This document shows positions 10,166 to 62,101 of a DNA stretch of 64,000 nt, piece by piece; position 1 is the first letter of the stretch; each line of letters begins with the position of its first letter. The DNA is taken from assembly GCA_046346705.1 (NCBI GenBank), contig JAXMHR010000014.1, positions 84,106 through 148,105 of the forward strand, in the 5' to 3' direction. The translations under genes were made by a program, and so were the position numbers. The notes below the pieces were generated by a model. The model saw only the letters and a program-made list of their open reading frames with translations. It did no database searches and was not told the origin of the DNA. This DNA comes from Verrucomicrobiota bacterium (GTDB lineage Bacteria > Verrucomicrobiota > Verrucomicrobiia > Limisphaerales > UBA9464).

Positions 10166-10187
10166 AGTCCTTCGTCCTGCGCCTGGA

Positions 10188-11518: not shown

Positions 11519-11544
11519 TCTGTGAGCATCGGTTTTGCTTACTA

Positions 11545-12258: not shown

Positions 12259-12361
12259 TTTGTCTGGTCGCAGGGTTGCAGCATGATGGTCCGGTTCGCG
12301 AGACGAAAATGCTGCCGAAGGAGAACCTTCGGCAGCATTACGAGTGGTATGCAGAGGAGAT

Positions 12362-13666: not shown

Positions 13667-13769
13667 CAGGTGATCAGGTGAAGGTTTGGTACTGCTTGAG
13701 TTTGTAGCTGTCTGGCTACGTGGGACGTTGACGGTTGTCAAGATTGATTCAGTTCCGGCGTTTCATCTT

Positions 13770-14588: not shown

Positions 14589-14722
14589 GGGCGGGGAGAA
14601 ACGTGCAAATGAAGTCTTGGGGCGGGTCCGGTGATTCCGGGGAATGATCTCCGGGGTTCGGCGGATCGGTCCGCAAGAATTCCGCTTGGCGTTCCCGGAG
14701 ACTGTGCTAGTCAGGAGGCGCC

Positions 14723-15454: not shown

Positions 15455-15525
15455 TTGAGGACCGCGTATTCCTGACGTCCGGTTTCCCCGCAAATCCTTC
15501 AATCCCCACCTTAGGGAGGTTCCCC

Positions 15526-16230: not shown

Positions 16231-16254
16231 GGGGGAGACGCAGGGTTGTCCGCG

Positions 16255-17565: not shown

Positions 17566-17614
17566 ATCGGAGTCCAGTTCACCTGGGTTTGCGAATCCGG
17601 TTGTCAGGAAGGTG

Positions 17615-18325: not shown

Positions 18326-18351
18326 GTCGGAGGGGGGGGGCGCGGCGGGAT

Positions 18352-20658: not shown

Positions 20659-20854
20659 GGCTTGGCCCTCGTTCGTAGCGCACCCTTGCCGAAGACGGCA
20701 GGGGAATTGTCAGGGAAATGTAATCTGCGCCTTTCCCGGGTCGTTGGAGTCGATGGGCGGCTTCCGGGCCTCGTGTCGGGAATGCTCCACGCCGGAGGCT
20801 TGCCTCGTCCGGTTCACCGCCTACGCTGGCCGCACTTCACCACCGGACGAACCC

Positions 20855-21859: not shown

Positions 21860-21894
21860 GGGGAACCGTGTGAAGAAGGGACAACGAACGATCC

Positions 21895-21988
21895 GTTAGT
21901 AGTGCAGGCTTCAGCCTGTTCCGCGGGTGAGGGGGTGGAGTGGGTGGGGAAGCAGGCTAATGCCTGGACTACGAACCGGACTACGAAC
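21895..21988. repeat. nested-hairpin intergenic repeat, copy A (inverted orientation, partly decayed)
   Basis: Arms GTTAGTAGTGCAGGCTTCAGCCTG (21895-21918) and CAGGCTAATGCCTGGACTACGAAC (21953-21976). 34-nt spacer. GGACTACGAAC is directly repeated at 21966-21976 and 21978-21988. Confidence 0.8.
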
Positions 21989-39485: not shown

Positions 39486-40838
39486 TCAGCGAAGCAGCAG
39501 CTTCTCGAGATACCCGACCGTCTGTCGCACCTGGGGATCCACCTCCATGCGGTTCTTCACAGCGCGCACGGCGTGCAACACCGTGCCGTGGTCGCGTCCG
39601 CCGAAGGCATCCCCGATGGAACTCAGCGAACTCTCGGTCAGGGTCCGGCAAAGAAACATGGCCACCTGACGGGGGAAGGCGATGTTCTCCGGACGGCGCT
39701 TGCTGGTCATGTCGGCGAGCCGGATGTCGTAGTGCTCGGCCACCCGCTTCTGAATCACCTCAAATGTGATGGCACGGCGGCTCTCCTCCTGGAGGATCTC
39801 GCGGAGCAGGTTTTCAACGTCGTCGAGTCGCACCGGACGTCCGGTGAGCTGGGTGAAGCTGGCCACGCGGACGAGCGCGCCTTCGAGGCGTCGCACGTTG
39901 GTGCGGATGCGATCCGCGAGGAACTGGACGATTTTGTCGTCGAGTTGGATGCCGAGTACGGCCGCCTTTTGACGGAGGATGGCGAGGCGCGTTTCGACGT
40001 CGGGCGGCTGGAGATCGGCGGTCAGACCCCATTCAAAGCGGGAGATCAGCCGTTGTTCGAGTCCGGGAATCTCGCTGGGCAGTTTGTCGCAGGTCAGGAC
40101 GATCTGCTTCCGTGCCTCGTGGAGTGTGTTGAAGGTGTGAAAAAATTCCTCCTGGATGCGTTCCTTGCCACTCAGGAACTGGATGTCATCCACGAGAAGG
40201 CAGTCCACCTGGCGATACCGGCGCCGGAACTTGGCCAGGGAGTTGTTCTGCAGGCCGTCGATGAACTCGTTGGTGAAGCGTTCGCAGCTCAGGTAGGCCA
40301 CCTTGGCGTTCTTGCGATGACTCAGGACTTCCTGGCCGATGGCGTTGAGAAGATGGGTCTTTCCGAGCCCGACGCCGCCAAACAGAAAGAGCGGATTGTA
40401 GGAACGCCCGGGATTTTGCGCGACGGCGATCGCCGCACTGTGGGCCATCTGGCTGTTGCTGCCGACCACGAACGTGGAAAACGTGTTGCTCGGATTGAAC
40501 GACGCCTCGACGGGGCGGCCGGCTACGGTGACCACACGCGGTTCCTCGCGGACCGGTGCGGGTGCGGGCCGGGCGGGAACGCTGGACAGGACTCCGACGA
40601 CAAACTCGATCTGGACCGGACGGACCGCCGTGCGGCTGGCCACCGAACGCAGGAGATCGAGATAATTATCGGTCAGCCACATCGCACAAAAGTCGTCGCG
40701 GACCTCCAACTTGAGGCGGTCACCCTCGAGGGAGACCGCGCGGATGGGCTCAAACCAAAGCTGATAAATGTCCGGTTTCAGGAGGCCTTGCAGGTGCTCC
40801 TGGACATTGGTCCAAAGGGTTTCGGCGGTGACGGGCAT
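39486..40838 (-). CDS. dnaA: chromosomal replication initiator protein DnaA
   Basis: Walker A GGVGLGKTHLLNAIG, LLVDDIQFLSGKERIQEEFFHTFN, C-terminal DNA-binding domain IAFPRQVAMFLCRTLT..SLSSIGDAFGGRDHGTVLHA. Start taken as ATG 40838 (MPVTAETLW). An upstream in-frame GTG at 40889 is the ORF-track start. Confidence 0.95.
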   Translation of the reverse strand: MPVTAETLWTNVQEHLQGLLKPDIYQLWFEPIRAVSLEGDRLKLEVRDDFCAMWLTDNYLDLLRSVASRTAVRPVQIEFVVGVLSSVPARPAPAPVREEPRVVTVAGRPVEASFNPSNTFSTFVVGSNSQMAHSAAIAVAQNPGRSYNPLFLFGGVGLGKTHLLNAIGQEVLSHRKNAKVAYLSCERFTNEFIDGLQNNSLAKFRRRYRQVDCLLVDDIQFLSGKERIQEEFFHTFNTLHEARKQIVLTCDKLPSEIPGLEQRLISRFEWGLTADLQPPDVETRLAILRQKAAVLGIQLDDKIVQFLADRIRTNVRRLEGALVRVASFTQLTGRPVRLDDVENLLREILQEESRRAITFEVIQKRVAEHYDIRLADMTSKRRPENIAFPRQVAMFLCRTLTESSLSSIGDAFGGRDHGTVLHAVRAVKNRMEVDPQVRQTVGYLEKLLLR

Positions 40839-40881
40839 TCTGGGTGGCTGGAAAGGGCGTTCCGGGGGAGAAAATCTGGGT

Positions 40882-40903
40882 TTATTCACGCCCCAAATTC
40901 ACA
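40882..40903 (+). promoter_or_regulatory. pair of DnaA-box-like 9-mers upstream of dnaA
   Basis: TTATTCACG (40882-40890) and AAATTCACA (40895-40903), compared with the consensus TTATCCACA. They lie 44-65 nt upstream of the ATG at 40838. Confidence 0.4.
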
Positions 40904-44946: not shown

Positions 44947-45417
44947 TTACTTCGCGGGTTTCTCCTTCGGCTCAGGAGCGGCTCCGCCGGCGTCGGGCGT
45001 CGGACGGGGACGGCGGCCTTCGCGCATCTTCTGCCACTTCGCGAACTGGTCTGCGGTCAGAATCGACTTGGCCGTTGCGGCGAAGGAATCCCGCAGCTCG
45101 CGCATCTTGGCGGTCCGCTGTTCCGGGTTCAGGCTGGCGTCGTCGCGCACGGCGCGCACTTTGTCCGCCTGATCCTTCTGGGCGGCCCGGAGCTTGTCGC
45201 GCTGGTCGTCGGTCAGTCCGAGTTCGGCCATGGCGGCATCCCGGCGTGCCCGGGCTCCCTCGGCAGCCTCCGGGGGCGGCTTCTGCTTCGGCTTCTCGGC
45301 GGACGGCGCGGGCGTCGGCTTCGGGGCCGGATCCTCGGCCCGAAGGCCGACGGGGATCAGAACAAGTGCGGCCAGCGTCAGGGACGCGGCACGGGAAAGA
45401 GAACGTTTTGAATTCAT
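44947..45417 (-). CDS. periplasmic Spy/CpxP-like (LTxxQ motif) protein
   Basis: 156 aa. Signal peptide. Two LTxxQ motifs (LTDDQRDKL, LTADQFAKW). Lys/Pro-rich ends. Confidence 0.5.
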   Translation of the reverse strand: MNSKRSLSRAASLTLAALVLIPVGLRAEDPAPKPTPAPSAEKPKQKPPPEAAEGARARRDAAMAELGLTDDQRDKLRAAQKDQADKVRAVRDDASLNPEQRTAKMRELRDSFAATAKSILTADQFAKWQKMREGRRPRPTPDAGGAAPEPKEKPAK

Positions 45418-45564
45418 AGTTCGCCGATAATGACGGCGGGCGGTGTCGGAAGGTTACATCCGGCTTTCCCAGGGGAGGATTCCTCCCGGCAACTGGACAA
45501 TTCCGGAGACAATCTATGGCAAAATTCCGCAAGCCCTGCCCGGCCGCCGCGCTATAGTTCGGGT

Positions 45565-46416
45565 GTGGTTTACGCGGTTTCATTCCCCCGTCGGCGCCGC
45601 AGTTCTGGGTTCACGCTCCTGGAACTGCTCGTCGTCGTCGGGATCATCGCCATTCTTGCCGGGCTCCTTCTGCCCGCCCTGGGCAAGGCCAAGTCCCAGG
45701 CCCGAAAAGTGAACGAGATGTCGTCCGCCCATCAGATCATGCTGGCCTGGACGATGTATGCCGACGATCACGGGGAGCGCGTGCTGAAGGGATACCGCCA
45801 CTTTGCACCGGGCGAGGAACTGCCCGTGGACAACATCGGCAAACCTGTGCCGCATCCCATCAACTGCCGCTACCCGTGGCGCCTCGCACCGTGGCTGGGG
45901 AAGAGCTTTGCCACGATGTACGCCAACGAGAACCGTCCGTTGTTGGAACAATTCCAGCATATGTCCGATCCGTTCATCGGTACCTACGCTGCCAGCGTGT
46001 TTCCCTCGCTGGGGATCAATGCGACCTTTGTGGGGGGGGATGATCTGGAACTGCCCCCGGAGCCCCGTGCCTTCGAGCGGTTCGGGCCTTTTTGTGTCCT
46101 CAAGACCTCGGACGCCCGGCGCCCCAGCGACCTGATGGTCTTCACCTCCGCCCGGGGGCCGTTTGAAGGCAAGGTCGTCAACGGGTTCTATTTGGTGAAG
46201 TCCCCGTACTTCATGGCGCGGCGCTGGTCGGAGGATTTCCATCCAGGGGACGGCCCCGAAGCCTGGGGGCATGTCCACCCGCGGTATTCCAATCGGGCGT
46301 TGGCCAGCATGGTGGACGGCCATGTCGAAGCCCTGGACCGACGCGAGTTGGAGGATATGCGCCATTGGGCCAATCAGGCGGACCGGCCCGACTGGACGCT
46401 TCAGCGGGTGAAGTAA
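45565..46416 (+). CDS. prepilin-type N-terminal cleavage/methylation domain protein (pseudopilin-like, DUF1559/H-x9-DG-like)
   Basis: GFTLLELLVVVGIIAILAGLLLPALGKAK class III signal. C-terminal ...ASMVDGHVEAL. There is no ATG before the signal, so the start was set at the in-frame GTG 45565 (low certainty). ORF track 45430..46416. Confidence 0.75.
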   Translation: MVYAVSFPRRRRSSGFTLLELLVVVGIIAILAGLLLPALGKAKSQARKVNEMSSAHQIMLAWTMYADDHGERVLKGYRHFAPGEELPVDNIGKPVPHPINCRYPWRLAPWLGKSFATMYANENRPLLEQFQHMSDPFIGTYAASVFPSLGINATFVGGDDLELPPEPRAFERFGPFCVLKTSDARRPSDLMVFTSARGPFEGKVVNGFYLVKSPYFMARRWSEDFHPGDGPEAWGHVHPRYSNRALASMVDGHVEALDRRELEDMRHWANQADRPDWTLQRVK

Positions 46417-46441
46417 CCGGGCGCGCCGGCGGGCGAACTGT

Positions 46442-46528
46442 TTGTAGTCCAGCCTTCAGGCTGATCCCCCTCCGTCTTTCTGCCGTCCTCGCGTCCCTGA
46501 AGAACAGGCTGAAGCCTGCACTACAAAC
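46442..46528. repeat. nested-hairpin intergenic repeat, copy B
   Basis: Arms TTGTAGTCCAGCCTTCAGGCTG (46442-46463) and CAGGCTGAAGCCTGCACTACAAAC (46505-46528). 41-nt spacer. Confidence 0.85.
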
Positions 46529-46549
46529 GCTTCAATCCCGACCCGCTCG

Positions 46550-46572
46550 TTCGTAGTCCAGCCTTCAGGCTG
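46550..46572. repeat. solo left arm of the same repeat
   Basis: TTCGTAGTCCAGCCTTCAGGCTG with no recognisable right arm downstream. Confidence 0.75.
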
Positions 46573-46654
46573 CCCCGCCATTGCGGTTGCGGGAACCCGG
46601 GATAGCGTGGCAGGCCGGGAGGGTTCCCGGAGGTCACCGTCAATTCCCCTGCAC

Positions 46655-47113
46655 ATGCCCGTTCACGTTCTCCAGCGCACGCAGCTCGTTTCCGCAACCC
46701 TGGCCCAGGCGTGGGCGTTCTTTTCAGACCCGCGGAATCTGCAGCGCATCACGCCCGCGTCCCTGGACTTCAAGATTCTCAGTGACCTCCCGGACCGCAT
46801 GTATGCCGGAATGATGATCCGCTACCGGGTGCGTCCGCTGCTGGGGATTCCGGTAACGTGGGTGACCGAGATCACGCACGTCGAGGAAGGGCGCCGGTTT
46901 GTGGATGAACAGCGCGTGGGGCCGTACCGGATGTGGCATCACGAGCACGAGTTTCGGGACGTCGGCGGCGGGAAGGTGGAGATCCGCGACCAGGTCACCT
47001 ACCAGCTCCCCTTCAGTTGGCTGGCGGAGCCGGTGCACGGGGTCTTGGTCCAGCCTAGACTGGACGAGATCTTTGCGTTCCGGACGAAGGCGGTGGGCGA
47101 AATTTTCCCTTAG
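46655..47113 (+). CDS. SRPBCC (START/Bet v1-like) superfamily protein
   Basis: ORF track 46607..47113. Start moved to MPVHVLQRTQLV (ATG 46655). FFSDPRNLQRITP, GPYRMWHHEHEF are typical of the SRPBCC subfamily often fused to YfcH-type epimerases. Confidence 0.65.
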   Translation: MPVHVLQRTQLVSATLAQAWAFFSDPRNLQRITPASLDFKILSDLPDRMYAGMMIRYRVRPLLGIPVTWVTEITHVEEGRRFVDEQRVGPYRMWHHEHEFRDVGGGKVEIRDQVTYQLPFSWLAEPVHGVLVQPRLDEIFAFRTKAVGEIFP

Positions 47114-47290
47114 TCGTGAGCTTCGACGAAGCCGATTCGGTCCGGTGATTTGCAGTCGGCCTGAACGAAGTCCCCTTTCTCCCTGAGGGGGATTCCTCCC
47201 GATTGGAGTCTTCCCGAGGATTTTGGTCGAGCGTGGCGGGGATTCTTGGCAACGTCTGCGGAACGCCCGTTCCACAATGGTTTGCCGCCC

Positions 47291-48379
47291 ATGAACCCGA
47301 TGCCATCGATTCCGCTGCCTTCCGCTCCCGCGTCACCCCGAGTTCGTTCCGCCCTGTTCGTGCGGTGGACCAGTGCCCTGCTGGCCGCGCTTCTATTGTC
47401 GAGTTGCAAACCCGACTCCGGTGCGGCCGGCTCCGGCGCCGCCCAGCCTTCAGGGAAAAAGAAGATCGCGTTCGTCAGCAACGGCGTCGCCTCGTTCTGG
47501 ACCATCGCCGCCGCGGGAGTGAAGGCCGCCGGGGAGAAGGTTGGCGTGGACACCACGACGCTCATGCCGGTGGAGGGCATCAGCGACCAGAAGCGGATCA
47601 TCGAGGACCTGCTCACCCGCGGCATCGATGGTATCGCGGTCAGCCCGATTGATCCCGCGAACCAGACCGAGCTGCTCAACCGCGTCGCCCAGCGCACCGG
47701 TTTGGTGACCGCGGATTCCGATGCGCCGGACAGCGACCGCGCCGTGTACATCGGCATGGACAACTACCAGGCGGGCCGGCTCTGCGGTGACCTCGTGCGC
47801 GAGGCCATGCCCAAGGGCGGCACCGTGATGTTGTTCATTGGACGCCTCGAGCAGGACAACGCCAAGCGCCGCCGCCAGGGCGTCATCGACGCGATTCTGG
47901 GACGTCCCTCCAACCCGGGAAACTTTGATCCCCCGTCCGCAGTGATCGAAGGCAATGGCTTCAAGATTCTGGGCACGCTCACCGACCAGTTCGACCGGGC
48001 CAAGGGCAAGGCGAACGCCGAGGATGCACTGGCCAAGTATCCGGACCTCGGCTGCATGGTGGGACTCTTCGCCTACAATCCGCCGCTCATGCTGGAGGCC
48101 CTCGCCCAGGCCAACAAACTGGGGAAGGTTCAGGTGGTGGCCTTCGACGAGGACGACGCGACGCTGGCCGGGATCCAGAAGGGAACCGTCCACGGCACGG
48201 TCGTCCAAAACCCCTACATGTACGGATACAAGTCGGTGGAAATCCTGTCCGAACTGGCCAAGGGCAACAAATCCGTGATTCCCGCCGGGAAGTTCATCGA
48301 CATTCCGGCGCGCCAGATCCGGAGGGGCGACGTCGACGCGTTCTGGGCCGAACTCAAGGTCCGGACCGGCGCGAAATGA
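47291..48379 (+). CDS. sugar ABC transporter periplasmic binding protein (RbsB-like, Peripla_BP_4)
   Basis: Start moved to MNPMPSIPL (ATG 47291). Signal with SSCK lipobox-like site. KKKIAFVSNGVASFWT, GIDGIAVSPID, VVAFDEDDATLAGIQKGTVHGTVVQNPY. Confidence 0.85.
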   Translation: MNPMPSIPLPSAPASPRVRSALFVRWTSALLAALLLSSCKPDSGAAGSGAAQPSGKKKIAFVSNGVASFWTIAAAGVKAAGEKVGVDTTTLMPVEGISDQKRIIEDLLTRGIDGIAVSPIDPANQTELLNRVAQRTGLVTADSDAPDSDRAVYIGMDNYQAGRLCGDLVREAMPKGGTVMLFIGRLEQDNAKRRRQGVIDAILGRPSNPGNFDPPSAVIEGNGFKILGTLTDQFDRAKGKANAEDALAKYPDLGCMVGLFAYNPPLMLEALAQANKLGKVQVVAFDEDDATLAGIQKGTVHGTVVQNPYMYGYKSVEILSELAKGNKSVIPAGKFIDIPARQIRRGDVDAFWAELKVRTGAK

Positions 48380-48392
48380 GTGCGGTCCGGCG

Positions 48393-49886
48393 ATGACGGC
48401 GCCCCTGCTTCAGGCCGAGGGATTGACCAAGTCGTATCCGGGCGTCCGCGCGCTCCGGGGCGTCGGACTCTCCGTGCGGTCCGGCGAGGTGTTGGCCGTC
48501 ATCGGCGAAAACGGCGCGGGCAAGAGCACGTTCATGAAGATCCTGGCCGGGGTCCAGCAGCCCGATTCCGGCGGGATCCACGTCTCGGGTGCGTCGGTCC
48601 GAATGCGCTCGGTGCAGGAGGCGCAGGCGCTCGGCATCGCCCTGATCCATCAGGAGCTGAACCTCGCCGAGAATCTGGACGTGGCGGACAACCTGTTCCT
48701 CGGACGCGAGCGCCTTCGCCACGGATTGATCGACACCCGTCGTCAGCACGCCGAGGCGCGCCGGCACCTCGGGATGGTGGGGCTCGACGTCGAACCGTCG
48801 GTGCCCGTGGGCACCCTCAGCCTGGGACAGCGCCAGTTGGTGGAGATTGCCAAAGCCCTGTCGGTCGATGCCCGGGTGGTGATCTTCGACGAACCGACTT
48901 CGAGCCTGTCGAGTGGCGAGGCGGCCAATTTGTTCCGTGTGATCCGGGATCTGCGCTCCCGCGGCGTTGCTGTGATCTACATCTCCCACCGGTTGGGTGA
49001 GGTGAAGGAACTGGCGGACCGCGTGGTGGTCCTGCGCGATGGCGAGAATGCCGGGGAACTGGCGCGCGAGGAGATCGGCCACGCCGCCATGGTGCGCCTG
49101 ATGGTGGGACGGGACCTGTCCCAATTCTACGCCCACGAGTCCCTGGCCCCGGGCCGGCCCCTGTTGGAGGTGGAGGGGCTTCGGACCGCGGCGCATCCGC
49201 GCCATGCCCTGCAGTTTCGCGTGCACGCCGGCGAGATTGTCGGCGTCGCGGGCCTCGTCGGTGCGGGGCGCACGGAAATGCTCGAAGCGCTTTTCGGAGT
49301 GACGCCCGCGGTCGGGGGCGTGGTGCGGGTGGACGGCGTGGAGTCGCGTCCGGAATCCCCCCAGGATGCCATCCGCGCCGGACTCGCCCTGGTCCCCGAG
49401 GACCGCAAGCGCCAGGGCGTCATTTTGGAAATGGCGGTGCGCGAGAACGTGAGCCTCGCGGCCCTGCGCCAGGATTCCCCGCGCGGATTCCTGAACCGAC
49501 TTTGGGAGAACTCGCTCGCCGCGGAGACCATCCGGAACCTGCGGGTCAAGACGCCCTCGCCGCTCCAGTCCGTGCAGTTTCTCTCGGGCGGCAACCAGCA
49601 GAAGGTCGTGCTGGGAAAATGGCTGGCGTTGAAACCGAAGGTGCTGCTGATGGACGAGCCCACCCGGGGCATCGACGTCGGCGCGAAGCATGAGATTTAT
49701 CGCCTGATGGAGGATCTCGCCCGGGAGGGCGTGGCCATTTTGTTTGTGTCCAGTGAACTCGAGGAGGTCCTCGGCCTCTCGGACCGCGTCCTCGTGCTGC
49801 ACGAGGGCCGGATCACCGGGGAACTGCCCCGCTCGGCCCTCAGTGAGGAGGCCGTGCTCCACCTTGCGACGAATACCTCCGCCTGA
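48393..49886 (+). CDS. sugar ABC transporter ATP-binding protein (duplicated ABC domains, RbsA/MglA-like)
   Basis: 497 aa. Walker A GENGAGKST, signature LSLGQRQ, second-domain signature LSGGNQQK, Walker B LLMDEPTRGID. Confidence 0.9.
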   Translation: MTAPLLQAEGLTKSYPGVRALRGVGLSVRSGEVLAVIGENGAGKSTFMKILAGVQQPDSGGIHVSGASVRMRSVQEAQALGIALIHQELNLAENLDVADNLFLGRERLRHGLIDTRRQHAEARRHLGMVGLDVEPSVPVGTLSLGQRQLVEIAKALSVDARVVIFDEPTSSLSSGEAANLFRVIRDLRSRGVAVIYISHRLGEVKELADRVVVLRDGENAGELAREEIGHAAMVRLMVGRDLSQFYAHESLAPGRPLLEVEGLRTAAHPRHALQFRVHAGEIVGVAGLVGAGRTEMLEALFGVTPAVGGVVRVDGVESRPESPQDAIRAGLALVPEDRKRQGVILEMAVRENVSLAALRQDSPRGFLNRLWENSLAAETIRNLRVKTPSPLQSVQFLSGGNQQKVVLGKWLALKPKVLLMDEPTRGIDVGAKHEIYRLMEDLAREGVAILFVSSELEEVLGLSDRVLVLHEGRITGELPRSALSEEAVLHLATNTSA

Positions 49887-49909
49887 ACCCGCGTCGCCCT
49901 GCCTCCACC

Positions 49910-50890
49910 ATGAGAAAAATCCTCGGCATCACCGCACTGCTGGTCGTCGTGTGCGTGCTGACCGCCCTCGCCAGCCCGAGCTTCCTGAGCGGCTACAATC
50001 TCGAGAACCTGATCCGTCGGACCGCGCTGTTCGGCATCATCAGCATCGGCGTCGCCTTTGTGATCGTGACGGGCGGCATTGATCTCTCCATCGGCTCGGT
50101 GGTGTGCCTCGTCGGCTGCGGTGTCCCGTGGCTCCTGACCGTGCACGGGTGGCCGGTGCCGGCCGCGCTCGCGGCGGCGGCGGTGGTCTCGGTGGGCATC
50201 GGACTCTTTCACGGACTCCTAATCACGCGGCTCGGCCTGCCGCCGTTCGTGGTGACGCTGTGCGGCCTGCTGCTGTACCGCGGCATTGCGCGCGGGTTCA
50301 CCCGCGACCAGACGGTGGGATTTGGCGCCGGCTACAAGGGGCTCCGCGTCCTGGCCACGGGCGAGATTCCGCTGCCGTTCGTTTCGGGATTTTCCGTGCC
50401 GTCCCCGTGGCTTTTCCTCATTGCCGTGGCGGTGCTGGCCTCGGTGTTCCTCAACCGGACGATTTACGGACGCTACCTTCTGGCCCTCGGCAGCAACGAA
50501 CAGGCGGCGCGCTACAGCGGCATCAACACGGGTCGGATGACCGTGCTGGCTTATGTGATCAGCTCATCGCTGGCCGGACTCGGTGGATTGCTGTTCGTCC
50601 TGGATGTGAACTCCGCGCAGCCCGTGGACTTTGGAAATTTCTACGAGCTGTACGCGATTGCCGCGGCCGTGCTCGGGGGATGCAGCCTTCGTGGCGGCGA
50701 GGGAACCATTCTCGGAGTCATCGTGGGGGCGGCCCTGATGCAGGTGTTGCGCAACATGATCACGCTGGTCACCACCCACAATAACGTGGAGTTCGCCATC
50801 ATCGGCGCGGTGATTCTGGCCGGGGTGATTGCCGACGAGGTGGTGCGGCGCCTGGCGCTGCGCCGCAAGGCCGCGCGCGAGGCGGCGTAG
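49910..50890 (+). CDS. sugar ABC transporter permease (RbsC-like, BPD_transp_2)
   Basis: 326 aa. TGGIDLSIGS motif. About 9-10 TM helices. Confidence 0.9.
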   Translation: MRKILGITALLVVVCVLTALASPSFLSGYNLENLIRRTALFGIISIGVAFVIVTGGIDLSIGSVVCLVGCGVPWLLTVHGWPVPAALAAAAVVSVGIGLFHGLLITRLGLPPFVVTLCGLLLYRGIARGFTRDQTVGFGAGYKGLRVLATGEIPLPFVSGFSVPSPWLFLIAVAVLASVFLNRTIYGRYLLALGSNEQAARYSGINTGRMTVLAYVISSSLAGLGGLLFVLDVNSAQPVDFGNFYELYAIAAAVLGGCSLRGGEGTILGVIVGAALMQVLRNMITLVTTHNNVEFAIIGAVILAGVIADEVVRRLALRRKAAREAA

Positions 50891-50941
50891 GGTTCTGTCT
50901 TCGGCATGGCGGGGGGGCATCGGGGCACGACGAGCGGTCGT

Positions 50942-51035
50942 TGGTAGTCCAGCCTTCAGGCTGTCTTCGCTCCCCAAACGGAAGAACGCCGTCATCGTTT
51001 GGAGTCCGGGACAGGCTAAAGCCTGCACTACGAAC
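50942..51035. repeat. nested-hairpin intergenic repeat, copy C
   Basis: Arms TGGTAGTCCAGCCTTCAGGCTG (50942-50963) and CAGGCTAAAGCCTGCACTACGAAC (51012-51035). 48-nt spacer. Confidence 0.85.
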
Positions 51036-51092
51036 CGGGGCGCGCTGAACTTTGGCATTTGGAGGCGGGCCGACCCCGCGTACCCTGAGGCC

Positions 51093-52625
51093 ATGGCGTT
51101 TGAATCGTTCGGCGACTGGATCCGGCAACTCGAGGAGGCCGGGGAGTTGAGGCGGATCCGCGAGCCGGTGGCCACGGAACTCGAAATCACCGCCATCGCC
51201 GACCGTGAGATGAAGCGTCCGGGCGGCGGCCAGGCGCTGCTGTTCGAGAAACCCACGGTGAATGGCGTGGTTTCCCCGTTCCCGGTCGCCATCAATACGC
51301 TGGGATCCTGGAGCCGGATGGCGCGGAGCATGGGATCCGAGTCCGTGGACACCGTCGCCGCGGAACTGGGCGCGCTGGTCAAGGCGAAGCCCCCCTCCGA
51401 CCTCCGCGAGGCGCTGCGGTTGTTGTCCCTCGGACTCGACCTCCGATTCGCGCGTCCCCGGACGGTGTCGCGCGGTGCCTGCCAGGACATCGTTCATCGC
51501 TTCGACGCTCCGGCGACGCGCACCGAACCCTGGCCGGCGGCTCCGGTGATTTCCGAGAATTCCCCGACGCCGGCGATTGCTTCGCCCACCCTGCTCAACC
51601 TGCCCATCCTGCACTGCTGGCCGCTGGATGGCGGACGCTTTCTCACACTGCCCTGCGTGGTGACGCAGGACCCGGACACCGGCGACCGGAACCTCGGCAT
51701 GTACCGGGTGCAGATCTATGACGATCGCACCACCGGACTGCACTGGCAGTTGCAGAAGGTCGCCGCACGTCATGGGCGGCGGTACTACGAGGCCGGACGG
51801 CGCATGCCCGTGGCCATCTTTCTCGGGGGCGATCCGGTCTTTCCCTTTGCCGCCACCGCACCGCTGCCGGATGGGCTCGATGAATTCCTGCTCGCCGGAT
51901 ACCTGCGGAAGAAATCCATCGAGCTGGTGAAATGCGTGACAAACGAACTCCAGGTTCCCGCCAACGCCGATTTCGTCATCGAGGGCTATGTGGACCCGAA
52001 GGAGCCGCTGCGCGATGAGGGACCGTTCGGGGATCACACCGGGTATTACACGCTGCCCGAGCCGTATCCGGTGTTTCACATCACGGCCATCACTCACCGG
52101 CACGATGCCGTGTATCCGGCGACCATCGTGGGTCGGCCTCCGATGGAGGATTTCTACATCGGGGCCGCGTCGGTGAAGCTCTTCCTGCCGATCTTCCGGA
52201 TGAACTTCCCGGAGATTGTGGACATCGCCCTGCCCGCCGAGGGCGTGTTTCACAACCTCGTCGTCGTGAGCATCCGGAAGACGTATCCGATGCAGGCTTA
52301 CAAGATCATGCACGGCCTTTGGGGCATGGGGCAGATGATGTTCACCAAGTACATCATCGTCGTGGATGCCGGGGTGGACGTGCACAACACGAGCGAGGTG
52401 CTCTTCCATCTGTGCGCCAACACGGATCCGCAGCGGGACAGTGAGTTTGCCCGGGGTCCTGCCGATGTCCTCGATCACGCCACCAGCGAGATTGCAGTCG
52501 GAAGCAAGCTGGGCATCGACGCCACGAAGAAACTCCCCGGAGAGGGCTTCCGACGTCCGTGGCCCCCGCTCATTCGCATGGATCCGGCGGTGGAGGATCG
52601 ACTTCGGTCTTTGGGAAAGCTTTGA
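51093..52625 (+). CDS. UbiD family (prenylated-FMN dependent) decarboxylase
   Basis: ORF track 50829..52625. Start moved to MAFESFGDWIRQLEEAGELRRI (ATG 51093). LLFEKP, NLGMYRVQI, EGPFGDHTGYY, MFTKYIIVVD. Confidence 0.85.
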   Translation: MAFESFGDWIRQLEEAGELRRIREPVATELEITAIADREMKRPGGGQALLFEKPTVNGVVSPFPVAINTLGSWSRMARSMGSESVDTVAAELGALVKAKPPSDLREALRLLSLGLDLRFARPRTVSRGACQDIVHRFDAPATRTEPWPAAPVISENSPTPAIASPTLLNLPILHCWPLDGGRFLTLPCVVTQDPDTGDRNLGMYRVQIYDDRTTGLHWQLQKVAARHGRRYYEAGRRMPVAIFLGGDPVFPFAATAPLPDGLDEFLLAGYLRKKSIELVKCVTNELQVPANADFVIEGYVDPKEPLRDEGPFGDHTGYYTLPEPYPVFHITAITHRHDAVYPATIVGRPPMEDFYIGAASVKLFLPIFRMNFPEIVDIALPAEGVFHNLVVVSIRKTYPMQAYKIMHGLWGMGQMMFTKYIIVVDAGVDVHNTSEVLFHLCANTDPQRDSEFARGPADVLDHATSEIAVGSKLGIDATKKLPGEGFRRPWPPLIRMDPAVEDRLRSLGKL

Positions 52626-54166
52626 TGCGGGTCGCTCCCGTGATGAACACATCTTCGAAGCTTTTCCGCGCCGCTCTGGTTTGGGCGACCGCTACGACTG
52701 CCCTGCTGCATGGCGTCGGGGCGACCCGGACTGTAGCCAACCTCGGGGACGGTCTGGATTCGGGAACGCTTCGGGCGACAATTGCCAAATCCCAGCCGGG
52801 GGACGTGATCGTCTTCGCCAAGGGGCTTCACGGGACGATCACACTGGCGGAGGGAGGGGAACTGCGCATCGACAAGGATCTCACACTGCGCGGTCCTGGA
52901 GCCGGACTCCTGACGGTGAAGGGGAATGGAGTTTCGCGCGTCCTCGTGATCACCAACGCGACCGTGAATCTGTCCGGGCTGACTCTCTCCGGAGGGCATT
53001 TGGTAGGGGCCAACGGACTCGAGCGGGTAGCGGGCGAGGCGGTCTTCGGTGCTGGACTCCTGAACCTGCATTCGGTCGCCGGTTACGTGGTCACGGTGAC
53101 CGATTGCGTGTTCCGCCAGAACTCGGCCGAAGGGGGCGATGGAGGTGGGACTCCGTTTGGAAATGGAGGAATCGGAGGGGGTGCCTATGGCGGTGCCCTG
53201 TTCAACAACGCGGTCCTCCATCTGGGCGGTTGCAGTTTCATTGAGAATTCCGTGACGGGAGGCGTCGGTGGCGCGGGGAATTTCGTGGGCGGAACGGGAG
53301 GACATGCCATCGGAGCTGCGATTTGCAGCACAGGCATTCTCGAAATGAAGAACTGCACGCTGGCGAACTCGCATGCGACCGGAGGACGCGGGGGTGGGGT
53401 GCCTTCCAACCTGCTGACCGTCCCGGGTGCGGGCGGGAATGCGGAAGGGGGCGGAGTCTATTCATCCGGCCAGCTCGCCATTCAGTCCTGCACCGTGTCG
53501 GGCGCCGTGTTGACGGGAGGGTTGGGGGGAGCTGGGGGAGTGTCGGATGGAGTTTCCGGCGGATCGTTTGGGGGCGGGATCCGGGTCGGGGATGGCTCCG
53601 CGGAGATCGGAAACACCCTGGTCGCCGGGAATACGGGCCAGGATGCCCCGGAGGTCTCGGGAACATTCGTTTCCCGCGGATTCAATCTGGTCGGTGCGGT
53701 GGACGGGTCCACCGGCTTTACTCAGACGACGGACCAGAAGGGCACCGTGCTGACTCCGCTCAATCCTCGATTGGGTCCGCTCGATGATCATCTCGGACCT
53801 ACCCCCACCTATTCGCTCCTGGCCGACAGTCCGGCCGTCGATCGGGGCTTCGCCTTTGGTGAATCCGTGGACCAGCGCGGGGCACCCCGTCCCTCGGACG
53901 TCGCTTCCATTCCGAATGTCGGGGACGGCACGGACATTGGCGCGCACGAATGGGTCCAGCCGCACCTCGCCATCTCCGCCATTCCCGGTTCCGTGGTCGT
54001 GTCGTGGTCAATCTTCACGCCGGGCCAGACGTTGTGGTCTGGTCCGGGGTTGACCGGAACGGGATGGGCCCCGGTGTCCGGTGTCCCGGCGAAGGTTGGA
54101 AGTGGGTACTGGGTCACCAACGTTCCTCCGTCCGGAACCGCCTTTTTCCGCCTGGTGGGACCTTGA
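52625..54166 (+). CDS. exported right-handed beta-helix repeat protein (Pmp/choice-of-anchor-Q-like) with C-terminal FFR-type module
   Basis: ORF track 52559..54166. Start moved to MRVAPVMNTSSKLFRAALVWATATTALL (ATG 52625, TGATG overlap with the UbiD-family stop). Repeated GGA(I/L/V)...N..(L/V) turns. C-terminal VVVSWS...GWAPVSG...GTAFFRLVGP. Confidence 0.65.
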   Translation: MRVAPVMNTSSKLFRAALVWATATTALLHGVGATRTVANLGDGLDSGTLRATIAKSQPGDVIVFAKGLHGTITLAEGGELRIDKDLTLRGPGAGLLTVKGNGVSRVLVITNATVNLSGLTLSGGHLVGANGLERVAGEAVFGAGLLNLHSVAGYVVTVTDCVFRQNSAEGGDGGGTPFGNGGIGGGAYGGALFNNAVLHLGGCSFIENSVTGGVGGAGNFVGGTGGHAIGAAICSTGILEMKNCTLANSHATGGRGGGVPSNLLTVPGAGGNAEGGGVYSSGQLAIQSCTVSGAVLTGGLGGAGGVSDGVSGGSFGGGIRVGDGSAEIGNTLVAGNTGQDAPEVSGTFVSRGFNLVGAVDGSTGFTQTTDQKGTVLTPLNPRLGPLDDHLGPTPTYSLLADSPAVDRGFAFGESVDQRGAPRPSDVASIPNVGDGTDIGAHEWVQPHLAISAIPGSVVVSWSIFTPGQTLWSGPGLTGTGWAPVSGVPAKVGSGYWVTNVPPSGTAFFRLVGP

Positions 54167-54210
54167 AGGAGGTCTGCGCTGGAGCCTGGGGACGGTTCTC
54201 CGTTCCCGGG

Positions 54211-55332
54211 TCAGGCGGATTGCGGGAATTCCACGCTGAAGGTCGCGCCCCGTCCGGGTTCGCTTTCGCACCAGACCCGGCCGTTCATGGCCTCCACCAT
54301 TTTCTTCACGATGGACAATCCCAGGCCGGTCGCGTGCTCGCCTCCGGTGGGCTTGGCGCTCAAGCGGGCGAACTTTCCAAACAGCCGCTTCTGATCCTCG
54401 GCGCTCAACCCCGGACCTTCATCCCGCACGTCGCAGCGAACGCGACCCGACTCGTGGCGCACGCGCACGAGGATGTCCTTGCCCGGAGGCGAGTATTTGA
54501 CGGCGTTGGACACGAGATTTTCCAGGACCTGCACCATCATGTTGGGATCCGCGACGACGGACACCGGACCCGTCTCCCCTTCCAGTCGCAGCGTTTGCTG
54601 CTTGGCCGCGGCCCGCGGTCGCTGAGTCTCGACCACGGACGCCACGAGCGAGGTCATCTCGGTGGGCTCCAGTTGGAGCCGCATCTCGCCTCGCTCGATG
54701 CGATTGGCGTCGAGAAGATTTTGAACCATCTCGGCCATGCGCTTCGCGGTTTCCCGGATGCGCTCGCCATGGCCTTCCAATTCCCGGTGCGCGAGTGCCT
54801 GGGCGTCCTCGACGACCATTTCGGCATACCCCTGGATGGCGCCGAGCGGGTTGCGAAGGTCGTGGGCGGCGATGCCCATGAATTCGTTCTTCTCCTCGTT
54901 CATTTCCCGCAGGCGTTCGCGCGCCTGGCGGAGTTCGATGTGGGTTTGCACGCGCGCGAGCAGCTCCGGCGGATTGAAGGGCTTGGTGACGTAATCCACC
55001 GCCCCCACCTCAAAACCGCGGACGAGGTGCTCCATCTCATTGCTGGCCGTGAGGAAAATGACCGGGATCTGCCGGGTGGCGTCCTCCGCCTTCAACCGGC
55101 GGCAGACCTCGAGGCCGTCCATCTCCGGCATCATCAGGTCGAGCAGGATCAGATCGGGAATCTGGGCGCGCACCCGCTCCAGCGCCTGGGCGCCGCTCGT
55201 GGTGGGCATGACTTCGTATCCGGCGTTCCGGAGCATGGTACCCACCACCTGGAGATTCTTGGTGATGTCGTCCACGACGAGGACCCGAGGCTTGGGTCCG
55301 GGTCCGGCTCCGGGCGGGGAAGCGGGGTTCAT
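54211..55332 (-). CDS. REC-HisKA-HATPase hybrid histidine kinase
   Basis: ORF track 54211..55467. Start moved to MNPASPPGAG (ATG 55332, ATGA overlap with the upstream stop). REC (VLVVDD, DLILLDLMMPEMDG, YVTKPF), H-box IAAHDLRNPL, LVSNAVKYSP, DEGPGL, GLGLSI. Confidence 0.85.
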   Translation of the reverse strand: MNPASPPGAGPGPKPRVLVVDDITKNLQVVGTMLRNAGYEVMPTTSGAQALERVRAQIPDLILLDLMMPEMDGLEVCRRLKAEDATRQIPVIFLTASNEMEHLVRGFEVGAVDYVTKPFNPPELLARVQTHIELRQARERLREMNEEKNEFMGIAAHDLRNPLGAIQGYAEMVVEDAQALAHRELEGHGERIRETAKRMAEMVQNLLDANRIERGEMRLQLEPTEMTSLVASVVETQRPRAAAKQQTLRLEGETGPVSVVADPNMMVQVLENLVSNAVKYSPPGKDILVRVRHESGRVRCDVRDEGPGLSAEDQKRLFGKFARLSAKPTGGEHATGLGLSIVKKMVEAMNGRVWCESEPGRGATFSVEFPQSA

Positions 55333-58300
55333 GAATGGGAGATGCTGGAACCGTGGACCGCGCGAACCATGTCGGGGAATCGCGCGAGGGTTTGGGGCAG
55401 ATGATCCAAATCGAAGTCCTGCGCCTGGCGTTCCAGGGTGTCGGCGTAGGCGGCCAGTTCCGTCCACTGCCCCGCCTCGGCGAGGGTCTTGAGCTTCGCT
55501 GCGAAGCCTTCGATCTCGACGATGGCCATGGTTTGGGTGAGGCGTGGCCAGGTGCCGGATTCCTCCGCCTTTAATTGGGTCAGCAGCTCCGGCCGACGCG
55601 CCGCAACCTCCGCCGCGACCTCGGTCGTCCCGGAAGCGGGTGCTTGCGGAGTCTGGACTGCGGAAGCTTCTGAAGGCCGCGCTGAAGCCGGCTTCAGAAA
55701 CCGCTTCAACTCCGCAATGAGTTCGGCGCGGTTGAAGGGCTTGCGGATGAATCCGTCGCAGACCTTGCGCGCCCGGGCCTCCTCTTCGCGAAATGAGGAC
55801 GCGGTGATGGCGATGACCGGAATGTTTCGAAGTGCTTCGTTGGCCTTGATCCGCTGGGTTGCCTGGTAGCCGTCCAGCTCGGGCATCCGCATGTCCATCA
55901 GGACGACACTCGGCCGATGCGTCTCCGCCAGGGTCACCGCTTCCCGACCATTCACGGCCAGGAGGATCGTGTGGCCCGTGCCTTCGAAGTACCCGGTGAG
56001 CAGTTCTCGATTCAGCGCGACATCATCGGCGACGAGAATCGTTGCCGGGGCGAACTGGGTGAAGTCGCCCTCGCCTCCCGTGGCGACGGCATCCGACTCG
56101 GCGAGCTGGGTGATCTCCACGCGCGGGAACGTAAACCGGAACGTGCTTCCCTGGCCGGGTTCGCTCTCCACAGTGATGCGACCATGCATCATTTCGGTGA
56201 GCCGCTTGGTGATGGTGAGGCCGAGCCCGGTGCCGCCGAACTTGCGGGTGCTCTGCCCGGCCACCTGGGAGAAGGCCCCGAAAATATGCTCCCGTTGCTC
56301 CTTCGGAATTCCGATGCCGGTGTCCGCTACTTCAAGGATGAGGTTGACGTGGTTTTCGTCCTCCGTGGCGCTGCCTTCCGGAACGCCGTCGCACACGTAG
56401 TCCGCCCGGGCGCGGATTTTAACCTGCCCCTTCTCGGTGAACTTCAGCGCATTGCCCACCACGTTGAACAGGACCTGGCGTAGGCGCACTTCGTCGAGCA
56501 TCAATCCGCGCGGGAGTTTCGGATCCATCTCCACCAGAAGCTGGATTCCCTTCTCGGAGGCCTTGATGGAGAAGAGGCGCTGAATCTCGTCCACGAGCCG
56601 CGGAACGCAGACCGGCTCGTATTGCAGTTCCAGCTTGCCCGCCTCGATCTTGGACAGGTCCAGGATGTCATTGATCAGGGCGAGCAGGGTGCGTCCGCTG
56701 GAGGAAATCGCGTCGAGATAGTTGCGGTCCTTGGACGCCGCCATCTGGGTGCGGAGCAGTTCGGAGAATCCGAGGATCGCGTTCATCGGCGTGCGGATCT
56801 CGTGGCTCATGTTCGCCAGGAATTCGCTCTTCGCCGCGTTGGCGGCTTCCGCCTGGGCGCGGGCGCTGTCGGCGGCGGCCCGCGCCGCCTCCAATTGCGC
56901 GTTCTTTGCCTCGATCTCCGCCCGGGCCTGTTCGGCCGCCTTGCGGGCGTCATGTTCCTCACGCAGCAATTGTTCCCGGAGCTGCTCCGCCTCGCGCTTT
57001 CGGCGGAGGACGAGTGAGCGGGCCACGAAGGCCCAGCCCACGAGACCCAGCGCCAGTCCGCCGCCCGGCACGGTGATGAAGGCGTTGGCGAACCAGGGGG
57101 CGACCACACTGAGGGTCACCCGCGCCGGTTCGGAATAGTTCAGGTCGCGGTCGATTTCCTGGACGAAGAAGGTGTAGTCGCCCGGGGTTTTGGGATTCCA
57201 GTCGAACTGCGTCGCGAGCGTCGGCTCACGCCAGGCCGCGTCCCGTTTTGCTGGTGCGGTCTCGGCCTTCCCCGGCACCACGGCGCATCGGTACAACCGC
57301 CGCGAGGGCTGCGTTCTGAAATCCACGGCATCGTAGCGGAACCCGACCAGTTGTCCGGACGTGATCGGGGGAATCTTCTCCGCGCTGGTGCGCTCCTGGT
57401 CGGTCTTCACCGTCAACCGCGGCCGGGGCTGCGGTCTTCGATGGGGACGGTAGCAACAGACCCCTTTGGTCGTACCGATCCAATAGGCGTCGTCCCGGCC
57501 TTGGGTGACGGTCATCACAAACAACTCGGGCAGGCCGTCCCCGTCATCGAGCCACGACCAGGAGATCCCGTCATAGCGGAACAATCCGGAGTCCGTGGCA
57601 AACCACAGCACGTCGTCGCGGTCCCGGAGAATCTGGAAAACGGTTCCTCGCGGCACGGTGCGGTCCGAGGTGCCTTCCAGTACCGAAAAGTTTGTTCCGT
57701 CGTACCGGGCGAGCCCCGCCGAAGTGCCGATGTAGAGCCTTCCGTCCTTCCCTTCCTGGAAACACCAAACCGAGTCGGACGGCAGGCCGCCCGCCGTCGT
57801 TGCGGCTGAAAAATGTCGGACCTCAGTTCCCCGAACTTGGGACAGTCCGTCCGGACGATAACGTCCCGCGGTCCAGAGGACGCCATGGGAATCCCCATAG
57901 ATCGTTGTGACCCAGTTCGAGAGTCCTGGAATCTTTTCGACCGTTGCCTTCCCAGCCCAGAGGTCATCCAGGTTTACCCGGTGCAGCCCCCTCTCGATCT
58001 TCCCGATCCAGAGCGTGCTCTTGGCATCAATGTGGAAGCCCCAGTTCGGTCCCGGAAACAAGGATGACGCATCGGGTGGTTGGAGATAGGGGGAGTGGTC
58101 GGGTCCTGCCTTCTTGGGAGAGTGGTAATAGATTCCCCCCAGGGAGGGTTCCCCGCCCAGCCATAGCCCTCCGTCTTTGTCGGGCAGGAGGGCGTACACC
58201 TCCGTTTTGTCGAATCCGTCGGACCGGGCATCGACGATGTGCCGTTCCCCCGGCGCGAACGGTCCCGGTTTCAAACGGGCCAGGTAGCCGGCGCCGTAGT

Positions 58301-61658: not shown

Positions 61659-62015
61659 GGGGAGGGTTTAGTCTATTGCGGTAAGGAAGGGGAGGGAGGA
61701 AGTGAATCGAAGGGCGGTATTCAGATTGGGAAGGTTTGAACGATAGTTCCGCGCCGATGCGTATCCCAAAGGGACACGTTCCAGGTTACGATGGGATCTT
61801 CTCTCAAAACGTGGTGTGTCACCCCGCCTTTCGAAAACGCGGAGATGAGAAATGGGTCCGACACTTTTCCTCAAACTGAAAACCTGGTGGATGGAGGAGA
61901 ACGGTGATCTGACCAATCCATCGCCTTCGATGACCTTCCCGGGCTTCCTAGCGGACGCTTCTATCGATATTGTCGGTGGAAGGGCAGGCGCGCCCCAGTC
62001 GGAGGGCGCCCCACA

Positions 62016-62101
62016 TTCGTAGTCCAGCCTTTAGGCTGTCCGAACTCCTGACCCCTACTCCCGGCGCGGGAATACAACAGGCTGGAGCCTGCACTACGAA
62101 C
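62016..62101. repeat. nested-hairpin intergenic repeat, copy D
   Basis: Arms TTCGTAGTCCAGCCTTTAGGCTG (62016-62038) and CAGGCTGGAGCCTGCACTACGAAC (62078-62101). 39-nt spacer. Confidence 0.85.

Follow-up and report, generated by a model that had tools for sequence, protein, structure and literature searches.

A short inverted repeat was followed up in a 64-kb stretch of DNA from a Verrucomicrobiota bacterium (contig JAXMHR010000014.1, positions 84,106 to 148,105; in the following referred to as the window), where it occupies four intergenic sites. These repeats are probably GTAG-tagged repetitive extragenic palindromic (REP) elements, which are arranged as inverted doublets in the manner of REPINs (REP doublets forming hairpins) or BIMEs (bacterial interspersed mosaic elements), which gain and lose tandem units and which would be dispersed by a REP-associated tyrosine transposase (RAYT) of the Y1 type encoded elsewhere. 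The repeat is present far above chance and is strictly intergenic, and the local hairpin formed by its arms is kept through compensatory changes in the stem. It is probably a member of a well-described kind of repeat, apparently without a match to the families described for Opitutus terrae. What is unusual is only the presence of almost the same 24-base unit in several distant phyla; in all other respects this is an ordinary bacterial REP family.

Arms, doublets and their intergenic location

The degenerate arm pattern GTAGTSCAGSCTNNAGSCTG was searched on both strands of the window with up to two mismatches and gave nine matches (21899+, 21953-, 46444+, 46505-, 46553+, 50944+, 51012-, 62019+ and 62078-), while the chance expectation is 0.00 (0 matches in 100 dinucleotide-preserving shuffles). 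The bare hairpin pattern CAGSCTNNAGSCTG returned the identical nine sites compared to 0.5 expected, and the repeat families were also recovered independently by a repeat finder. The nine arms are spread over four intergenic sites, A to D, in agreement with an earlier reading made from the sequence alone, which had claimed the same two arms at four intergenic sites. Scanned for GTAG-headed perfect hairpins, the window contains only this arm family and a few isolated unrelated hairpins.

Each arm is built of 24 nt with the head GTTNGTAGT, one free base, a GC-rich stem of 5-6 bp and a TTYA loop, and is written from head to tail as GTTN-GTAGT-S-CAGSC-TTYA-GSCTG. The arms of 20-24 nt that had been proposed are real, but each of them runs 4 nt further out (GTTN-GTAGT). 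All nine window arms are headed by GTAGT, and in eight of the nine GTT is found further out. Six arms have a perfect 6-bp stem and two a 5-bp stem, and the right arm of copy D forms six Watson-Crick pairs with a CC center; the two-nucleotide centers are as they had been given (TC, TC, TC and TT on the left; GA, AA and GG on the right). There are two arm variants, GTAGT-C-CAGCC-TTYA-GGCTG and GTAGT-G-CAGGC-TTYA-GCCTG, which are distinguished by one flipped stem base pair and by a different base after GTAGT. Copies B, C and D carry the CAGCC variant as left arm on the + strand and the CAGGC variant as right arm on the - strand, with the heads directed outward. Copy A had been described as the opposite orientation of this arrangement; it is not a simple flip, since its + arm has the CAGGC stem and its - arm is a hybrid with C after GTAGT and a degenerate CAGGC-type stem. 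The copies are 82-96 nt in size, and the spacers of 34, 41, 48 and 39 nt (A, B, C and D) show no relation among the four. The assignment to the REP/BIME-like class was upheld by the GTAG tag with a GC-rich palindrome, the extragenic location, the head-out doublets and the tandem clusters (PMC3733652).

The neighboring genes in the window were checked by Pfam and agree with the statement that three copies lie just 3' of genes and copy D in the 5' region of tpiA. The distance from the stop codon to the start of the copy is 36 nt for copy A (MoxR), 24 nt for copy B (N_methyl pilin-like protein) and 50 nt for copy C (ABC permease); copy D lies between tpiA and the divergently oriented SGL lactonase gene and precedes the probable ATG of tpiA (62194) by ~93 nt. 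None of the nine arms falls into a Pfam-supported gene, which confirms that no arm is part of a supported coding sequence. Loci outside the window are designated by L numbers; they include the 94 arm-bearing loci of the genome scan described below, fetched relatives and RAYT loci. The arm clusters of the gene-called loci L192 and L098 all lie between called genes; one call of 60 aa that overlaps the L098 arms is probably spurious. Eight of nine sites in gene-called sequence separate same-strand genes. For annotation, the recognition of the REPs removes spurious read-through open reading frames (ORFs), as represented by the peptides VRSPAFRL and QPEGWTTN.

Compensatory changes in the stem

For each arm found by pattern, the partner arm was taken as the 16 nt before the first ACTAC at most 140 nt downstream, so that the partners are unselected by the pattern. 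Of the 53 unique partners, 36 have all five Watson-Crick pairs when read in the expected register, together with a TNAA loop, and a further ten have four of the five, while only 3 of 508 control ACTAC sites elsewhere in the same loci have all five pairs. At least 13 partner stems occur, including CAGGC, CAGCC, CAAGC, CGGCC, CGCAC, CCGTC and CGGGC as well as ACGAC, CCACC, CCGGC, CGCCC, CACGC and CCGCC. Covariation was counted formally on 65 distinct 25-nt partner arms (same sites, tail included), in which 92.8% of the stem cells are paired, both sides are changed in five of the six pairs and double-change cells number 60, compared to 17 in shuffles. The covariation score is 0.422 versus 0.117 for shuffled sequences, and none of 500 shuffles scored as high. 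If the register is slid, pairing drops to 18-57%. The local stems are therefore also kept in additional copies, as had been predicted. Stem compensation holds on this wider, unconstrained set of partners; the C/G swaps within the window, which had been put forward for it, represent two subfamily variants combined as heterodimers and not independent events.

G-U is almost absent among the 362 paired cells, and because nearly all pairs are Watson-Crick a constraint on DNA, in which both strands fold, fits better than one on RNA only. Head GTTNGTAGT, TTYA loop and tail are conserved and the stem varies, which is the pattern expected of a hairpin that is read by a protein. GTT occupies the three bases preceding the variable N upstream of GTAG in 215 of 250 generalized arms across the loci.

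For each window doublet, minimum-energy folding predicts a single long, imperfect hairpin that contains three 1x1 mismatches, and folding of whole window doublets gave z-scores of -3.75 to -4.02 for RNA and of -2.1 to -5.5 for DNA. The suggestion that the outer ends pair across the spacer is thus possible as a fold, but covariation in favor of it is missing in the 61 doublets: the N of GTTN is the same in 23 of 61 and the base after GTAGT in 15 of 61. Covariation thus gives no support to pairing between the arms of a doublet; instead, a difference between them is maintained, and for this reason the long hairpin that they form is always mismatched.

Copy-number change and dispersal of units

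Across the loci, 61 head-out (HH) doublets were found, with spacers of mostly 20-60 nt. In 58 of them the stems of the two arms differ, i.e., they are heterodimers. Heterodimers may persist as nucleases of the SbcCD type remove long perfect palindromes, as was suggested before (PMC3733652). Locus L078 contains seven tandem units of ~90 nt with alternating + and - arms and a conserved spacer. Site B carries 1.5 units in the window and in the close relative L192 and 3.5 units at the orthologous site of L047, a contig of the metagenome-assembled genome (MAG) JAEUHD01. The additional arm at site B, which had been taken as a solo arm, is therefore the terminal arm of a tandem array. Site C has one doublet in the window and two in L192, a relative with 95% identical UbiD; the second doublet of the relative looks like a duplicate with an internal deletion. 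The unit of copy B, composed of arm, spacer, arm and linker, recurs at five other JAEUHD01 loci with 70-85% identity, which indicates that composite units are dispersed and not only duplicated in place. The spacers, which had been regarded as unrelated, are unrelated within the window, but spacer and linker of copy B have these relatives at other JAEUHD01 loci. The linkers between units are 4-20 nt long and differ between arrays. Arms also occur alone, and in L040 and L052 they form direct head-to-tail runs with 8-13 nt between them. By analogy to known systems, growth and shrinkage of arrays could proceed by recombination or replication slippage between arms. In Verrucomicrobial MAGs, breaks in the assembly and intergenic regions of variable length are explained by REPs of this kind.

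Copy A is accompanied by tail-only fragments. The tail-like ACAACGAAC before copy A looks like the end of a lost neighboring arm, the 5' flank of the copy resembles the inter-unit junctions of other loci and GGACTACGAAC is present twice (21966-21976 and 21978-21988). Copy A and the tail-only fragments look like the decayed remains of a larger cluster. Duplication of the tail ACTACGAAC at a distance of 2-3 nt was seen in the window (21966-21988) and in the cyanobacterial locus L054 (~1490-1520, minus strand), and L005 contains a partial duplication of the head (GTAGTGCAGG...GTAGTGCAGGC). Such tail and head duplications could have been left behind when arm ends were cleaved and rejoined, or could result from slippage there.

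Occurrence in distant phyla

The 24-nt pattern GTTNGTAGTSCAGSCTNNAGSCTG was scanned against GTDB with one genome per species, and at least 94 blocks with a match were obtained, while ~2 chance matches were estimated. Among the matches listed, at least ~38 arm-bearing 8-kb blocks belong to MAG JAEUHD01 ("Verrucomicrobiales bacterium new MAG-8") and at least 14 to another Verrucomicrobiota MAG; several blocks each were found in Victivallales and Lentisphaeraceae, Kiritimatiellia, Hydrogenedentota and KSB1, and fewer in Phycisphaerales/Planctomycetota, a Nitrospiraceae MAG and a Coleofasciculaceae cyanobacterium. The 24-nt unit is thus present in MAGs of Verrucomicrobiota, Lentisphaerota, Kiritimatiellota, Planctomycetota, Hydrogenedentota, KSB1, Nitrospiraceae and cyanobacteria, in a cross-phylum scan that is biased by its search pattern. 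The head GTTNGTAGT, the TTYA loop and often the same CAGSC stem are common to at least eight bacterial phyla. As the flanks of the loci carry the composition of the host, the cyanobacterial loci being rich in GCGATCGC and the KSB1 loci being AT-rich, mis-binning is unlikely. An uncultured lineage of the Verrucomicrobiales thereby joins the known hosts of GTAG-tagged REPs, as apparently do several further environmental phyla.

The window itself stems from a relative of MAG JAEUHD01, as its positions 46440-50001 are 87% identical to L047. The strain of the window is represented in four independent short-read assemblies, and copy C is identical in all of them. A phage-borne repeat was ruled out, as arms of the GTTNGTAGTSCAGSCTNNAGSCTG type gave no match in 2.9 million viral contigs.

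In some loci the arm is found in a different context. In L004 (Kiritimatiellia), L045 (Verrucomicrobia UBA2281) and L073 (Spartobacteria) it lies inside a longer conserved element, ATACCAGACCC-GTTCGTAGTCCAGCCTTCAGGCTGG-ATCCTTGCACCGAATCGCAGATGCGCCCG, and L017 has three copies with ~90 nt in common; in these cases a REP may be part of a larger composite repeat. The cyanobacterial copies are compact (~55 nt) and consist of two adjacent hairpins between GTTTGTAGT and ACTACNAAC, with the shared motif CTTTAYSTTKRCTGTACTAG ~10-20 nt after the copy (L019, 4640-4700; L030, 1060-1130; L054, 1480-1550 on the minus strand).

Transposases and the proposed mobilization

In studied systems, GTAG-tagged REPs flank the RAYT gene and are cut by its product. 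From the known REP/RAYT systems we infer that the arms described here are mobilized likewise. They would be recognized as single-stranded DNA hairpins through their GTAG head by a RAYT-type HUH Y1 transposase encoded elsewhere, and this enzyme would cut and rejoin them, resulting in dispersal without target duplications. At the 3' ends of genes, the doublets may be co-transcribed and form stable stem-loops that could protect or punctuate mRNAs, while they would not act as intrinsic terminators.

RAYT genes were collected in 84 loci. An alignment of Verrucomicrobial RAYTs scanned against metagenomes contributed 80 of these loci, and protein look-up the other four. As a positive control, 61 of these 84 loci carry GTAG-headed perfect hairpins. 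Many of these lie beside the RAYT gene, and often two stem variants with TTYA loops alternate, such as GTAGGAGCGGCTTTAGCCGC and GTAGGAGGGGCTTTAGCCCC in L142 or GTAGCCGGCATCGTTGATGCCGG and GTAGCCGGGATCGATGATCCCGG in L160. The architecture seen in the window is therefore the usual one for RAYT-associated REPs. The O. terrae RAYT (PMC3733652) led to Verrucomicrobial REPtrons with other REPs, e.g., GTAGGGCCTGAGCTTGCTCAGGC.

Several observations weigh against mobilization by a RAYT, which had been suggested before. Regular expressions and two hidden Markov models detected no RAYT in the 64-kb window or in ~0.65 Mb around the 94 arm loci, and the arm is present in none of the 84 RAYT loci. RAYTs are typically single-copy, and because of this their absence near the arms is uninformative. 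A single Y1 transposase-like gene was located close to an arm (L032, 27-1001; JAEUHD010000252). It is above the Pfam Y1_Tnp threshold and below the NCBIfam RAYT cut-off, and it was rejected as mobilizer, as it belongs to a 343-aa family of which the relatives P0003 and P0009 are flanked by another repeat, AAGGGACAGGACRTCTAT. Classic REPINs transpose as whole units with conserved spacers, while the four window doublets have unrelated spacers. Only tandem copy-number change was seen and no empty orthologous site was recovered, the relatives with 95% UbiD identity all having filled sites and the relative with 88% being without synteny. Furthermore, REPIN-RAYT systems are described as lineage-specific and vertically inherited (10.1101/2022.05.22.493013), and for such systems it is unusual that distant phyla carry near-identical arms.

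Since at least eight phyla share the arm and no RAYT lies beside any of the ~100 arm loci, a joint reading was considered, in which either a REP/RAYT system moves horizontally across phyla or an orphan REP family is kept by a conserved host activity that reads GTAG hairpins. Even with both options taken together this reading is rather unlikely. Horizontal transfer of a REP/RAYT system across phyla, if true, would contradict strictly vertical, lineage-bound REPIN-RAYT partnerships. The cross-phylum sharing would bear on the origin and persistence of such elements if it came from REP/RAYT transfer, and would otherwise be ordinary.

The 343-aa Y1-like family is common in Verrucomicrobiota (L095-L103; in L098 the gene is located at 10001-11032) and resembles the long "TIRYT" proteins (Di Nocera, 2013; PMC3733652). 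On either side of its members, direct copies of AAGGGACAGGAC(A/G)TCTAT are found in place of GTAG hairpins, and this motif has no copy in the window. In L032, the last ~100 nt of the Y1-like gene together with ~260 nt downstream are duplicated in tandem and near-exactly (~898-1258 and ~1256-1616).

Alternative explanations

Instead of mobile elements, the repeats could be selected cis-acting RNA elements, such as 3'-end stabilizers, attenuators or atypical terminators, that are conserved due to an RNA function. This would fit the start of three of the four window copies within 24-50 nt after a stop codon, the location of eight of nine gene-called sites between same-strand genes, the strong predicted RNA folds (z ~-4) and the covarying stems. 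However, a divergent promoter region is the location of copy D, the number of units at the same site varies among close relatives (1, 2 or 3.5) and the near absence of G-U in the paired cells is unexpected if RNA were the only constraint. An intrinsic terminator was excluded, as the tails ACTACRAAC are followed by G/C-rich sequence with no U-tract after any arm, and a terminator scan of 45000-52000 gave no site at the arms. The comparison with Rfam that had been proposed remained negative: Rfam 15 gave no match in the window at the gathering score and none in 46380-46640 at E <=10, and over 18 arm-bearing loci it returned only tRNAs. An RNA function is compatible with REPs as a secondary effect and is not an alternative identity; as the identity of the repeats it is regarded as improbable. 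It is still more doubtful that the arms are binding sites of a host DNA-binding protein (nucleoid factor, gyrase, an IHF-like protein or a regulator) that were spread by recombination without a dedicated transposase. The conserved head and loop with variable stems are what a protein-recognized hairpin or palindrome would show, no cognate RAYT was found in the window, the 94 arm loci or the 84 RAYT loci, and the CGTC superfamily of REPs is likewise without a dedicated transposase (PMC3733652). In this case, however, near-identical units at many unrelated loci and in distant phyla would be hard to explain without a mobilizing activity, and the all-against-all comparison of ORFs from the 94 arm loci linked no candidate binding protein to them. 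Moreover, the GTAG tag is described as the RAYT recognition element of studied systems (PMC3479197, PMC8266576).

Elements of the MITE type (miniature inverted-repeat transposable elements) with terminal inverted repeats would agree in their length of 82-96 nt, their inverted ends, their intergenic location in multiple copies and the dispersal of a composite unit in a related genome. Yet none of the four window copies is flanked by a direct repeat that could represent a target-site duplication, and lone arms and direct head-to-tail runs (L040, L052) are unlike a pair of terminal inverted repeats. Each arm is a covarying hairpin of its own with a conserved GTAG tag, and beside the arms neither a gene family nor any transposase that has such ends is found repeatedly, so that a MITE identity is hardly credible. 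Integron attC sites were rejected by inspection, as the boxes of attC (left RYYYAAC, right GTTRRRY) are arranged opposite to those of the repeats (left GTT, right AAC), and the arrays are without cassettes. A CRISPR-like array was rejected as well, since it does not agree with arms of alternating orientation and with "spacers" that are conserved inside one array (L078). A literature search by arm sequence gave only unrelated primer matches.

Positions of the repeats and neighboring regions

Table 1. Arms, spacers and flanking fragments of the repeat and adjacent genes in the window.
Feature	Position	Strand	Sequence or remark
MoxR-type AAA ATPase	20486-21859		5' of copy A
Tail-like remnant ACAACGAAC	21881..21889	+	5 nt before copy A
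Copy A arm 1	21895..21918	+	GTTA-GTAGT-G-CAGGC-TTCA-GCCTG; CAGGC-stem unit, head left
Copy A spacer	21919..21952		34 nt, G-rich
Copy A arm 2	21953..21976	-	GTTC-GTAGT-C-CAGGC-ATTA-GCCTG; degenerate hybrid, 5-bp stem
Duplicated tail ACTACGAAC	21980..21988	+	3' of copy A
Radical SAM protein	22269-23696
N_methyl pilin-like protein	45430-46416		5' of copy B
Copy B left arm	46440..46463	+	GTTT-GTAGT-C-CAGCC-TTCA-GGCTG
Copy B spacer	46464..46504		41 nt; related spacers at other loci of MAG JAEUHD01
Copy B right arm	46505..46528	-	GTTT-GTAGT-G-CAGGC-TTCA-GCCTG
Inter-unit linker of site B tandem array	46529..46548		conserved in relatives
Site B terminal array arm	46549..46572	+	GTTC-GTAGT-C-CAGCC-TTCA-GGCTG
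Polyketide-cyclase-fold protein	46607-47113
ABC permease	49910-50890		5' of copy C
Copy C left arm	50940..50963	+	GTTG-GTAGT-C-CAGCC-TTCA-GGCTG
Copy C spacer	50964..51011		48 nt, own internal stem
Copy C right arm	51012..51035	-	GTTC-GTAGT-G-CAGGC-TTTA-GCCTG
UbiD	51093-52625
SGL lactonase	60744-61658	-
Copy D left arm	62015..62038	+	ATTC-GTAGT-C-CAGCC-TTTA-GGCTG; head ATT, not GTT
Copy D spacer	62039..62077		39 nt
Copy D right arm	62078..62101	-	GTTC-GTAGT-G-CAGGC-TCCA-GCCTG
Triosephosphate isomerase (tpiA)	from ~62194

No neighboring gene recurs at the arms: the all-against-all ORF comparison of the 94 arm loci returned only abundant families of the PVC (Planctomycetes-Verrucomicrobia-Chlamydiae) superphylum, such as pilin-like proteins. 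In the window, dnaA is located at 39486-40889 on the - strand, with adjoining P-II and SOUL genes, likewise in the relatives L193 and L195. It falls between copy A and copies B-D, and the GC skew changes its sign near 9 kb and not at dnaA. The idea that the orientation of the arms is tied to the direction of replication was set aside, as the skew switch lies away from dnaA and four sites allow no conclusion.

Two further regions of the window stand out. Between UbiD and the SGL lactonase gene, ~8 kb (52559-60680) are absent from L192-L195 (~95% UbiD identity), in which the two genes are adjacent. Besides an ORF of 535 aa that matches no Pfam family, the region encodes a hybrid histidine kinase/response regulator (54211-55467, -) and a Reg_prop/Y_Y_Y hybrid sensor kinase of 1783 aa (55329-60680, -). 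Positions 10000-14700 have a low GC content (0.56 vs. 0.64 overall). They contain four ORFs of 283-459 aa that match no Pfam family and two repeats, an inverted one of 72 nt (10569-10640 / 11809-11880) and a direct one of 82 nt (12585-12666 / 13092-13173); this part may be a foreign island.

In the relative L192, a group II intron reverse transcriptase (RVT_1 and GIIM, 9431-10666) is encoded directly upstream of a REP cluster, the arms being located at 10774-10953 and 13625-13997, and downstream of the SGL gene this region is unlike that of the window. The related Verrucomicrobial contig L098 encodes a JetABCD (Wadjet) defense operon (13660-20584), and a REP doublet with an extra arm is found at 20683-20802, just upstream of jetA.

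Comparison with known repeat systems

The closest likeness was found to the GTAG-tagged superfamily of REPs, which is characterized by an unpaired GTAG tag, stems of mostly 6-9 bp, very short loops, many of which are "TY", and subfamilies with alternative complementary stem residues (PMC3733652). Its HH dimers have the GTAG termini outside, usually 20-100 bp apart, they are preferentially heterodimers, for which the authors give no explanation, and reiterated dimers form clusters (PMC3733652). The superfamily comprises 24 families with hosts including O. terrae ("highly enriched"), Rhodopirellula baltica and cyanobacteria, and some of the families occur in evolutionarily distant organisms (PMC3733652). 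The window repeats share the tag, the TY loops, the complementary stem subfamilies, the HH heterodimers and the clusters, the location mostly between genes of the same direction, and hosts in the PVC superphylum and the cyanobacteria. They differ in their longer head (9 nt) and in the variable HH spacers, which by the rule of thumb of PMC3733652 are conserved. The arm GTTNGTAGT-S-CAGSC-TTYA-GSCTG was set beside the 24 published families by their descriptions, not by consensus sequences. The peptides encoded by intragenic O. terrae REPs (VGPALAAG, GTGVPPV; PMC3733652) differ from those this arm would encode, and the arm family is therefore probably none of the O. terrae families. Usual copy numbers in the class exceed 100 per genome, to which nine arms in 64 kb and at least ~38 arm-bearing 8-kb blocks in MAG JAEUHD01 are to be compared.

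REPINs of Pseudomonas fluorescens and others (PMC3116915) are similarly composed of two inverted REPs with a short spacer, for which one long imperfect hairpin is predicted; they have singlets that look like remnants of doublets and many dispersed intergenic copies. Here, in contrast, the spacers differ among the window copies, the arm occurs in several phyla and no cognate RAYT was found among the loci searched. In the BIMEs of E. coli, two REP types alternate in inverted orientation, the number of units per cluster varies and a GTAG head lies 5' of the hairpin (PMC3333891; PMC3479197), as in the window repeats, whereas the sequences are others and the hairpin described here is much simpler (5-6 bp, no bulges). 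The subterminal hairpins of the insertion sequence (IS) family IS200/IS605 are also short and imperfect, are read as single-stranded DNA by HUH Y1 transposases and come without target duplication, but the window repeats have no transposase gene between their arms and fall far below the length of an IS. Bacterial MITEs (Correia/NEMIS, RUP, Nezha) resemble the repeats in their length of ~100 nt, their inverted ends, their intergenic location and their folding upon transcription; the window repeats differ from them by the lack of a target-site duplication and by autonomous hairpin arms that also occur singly and in direct tandem.

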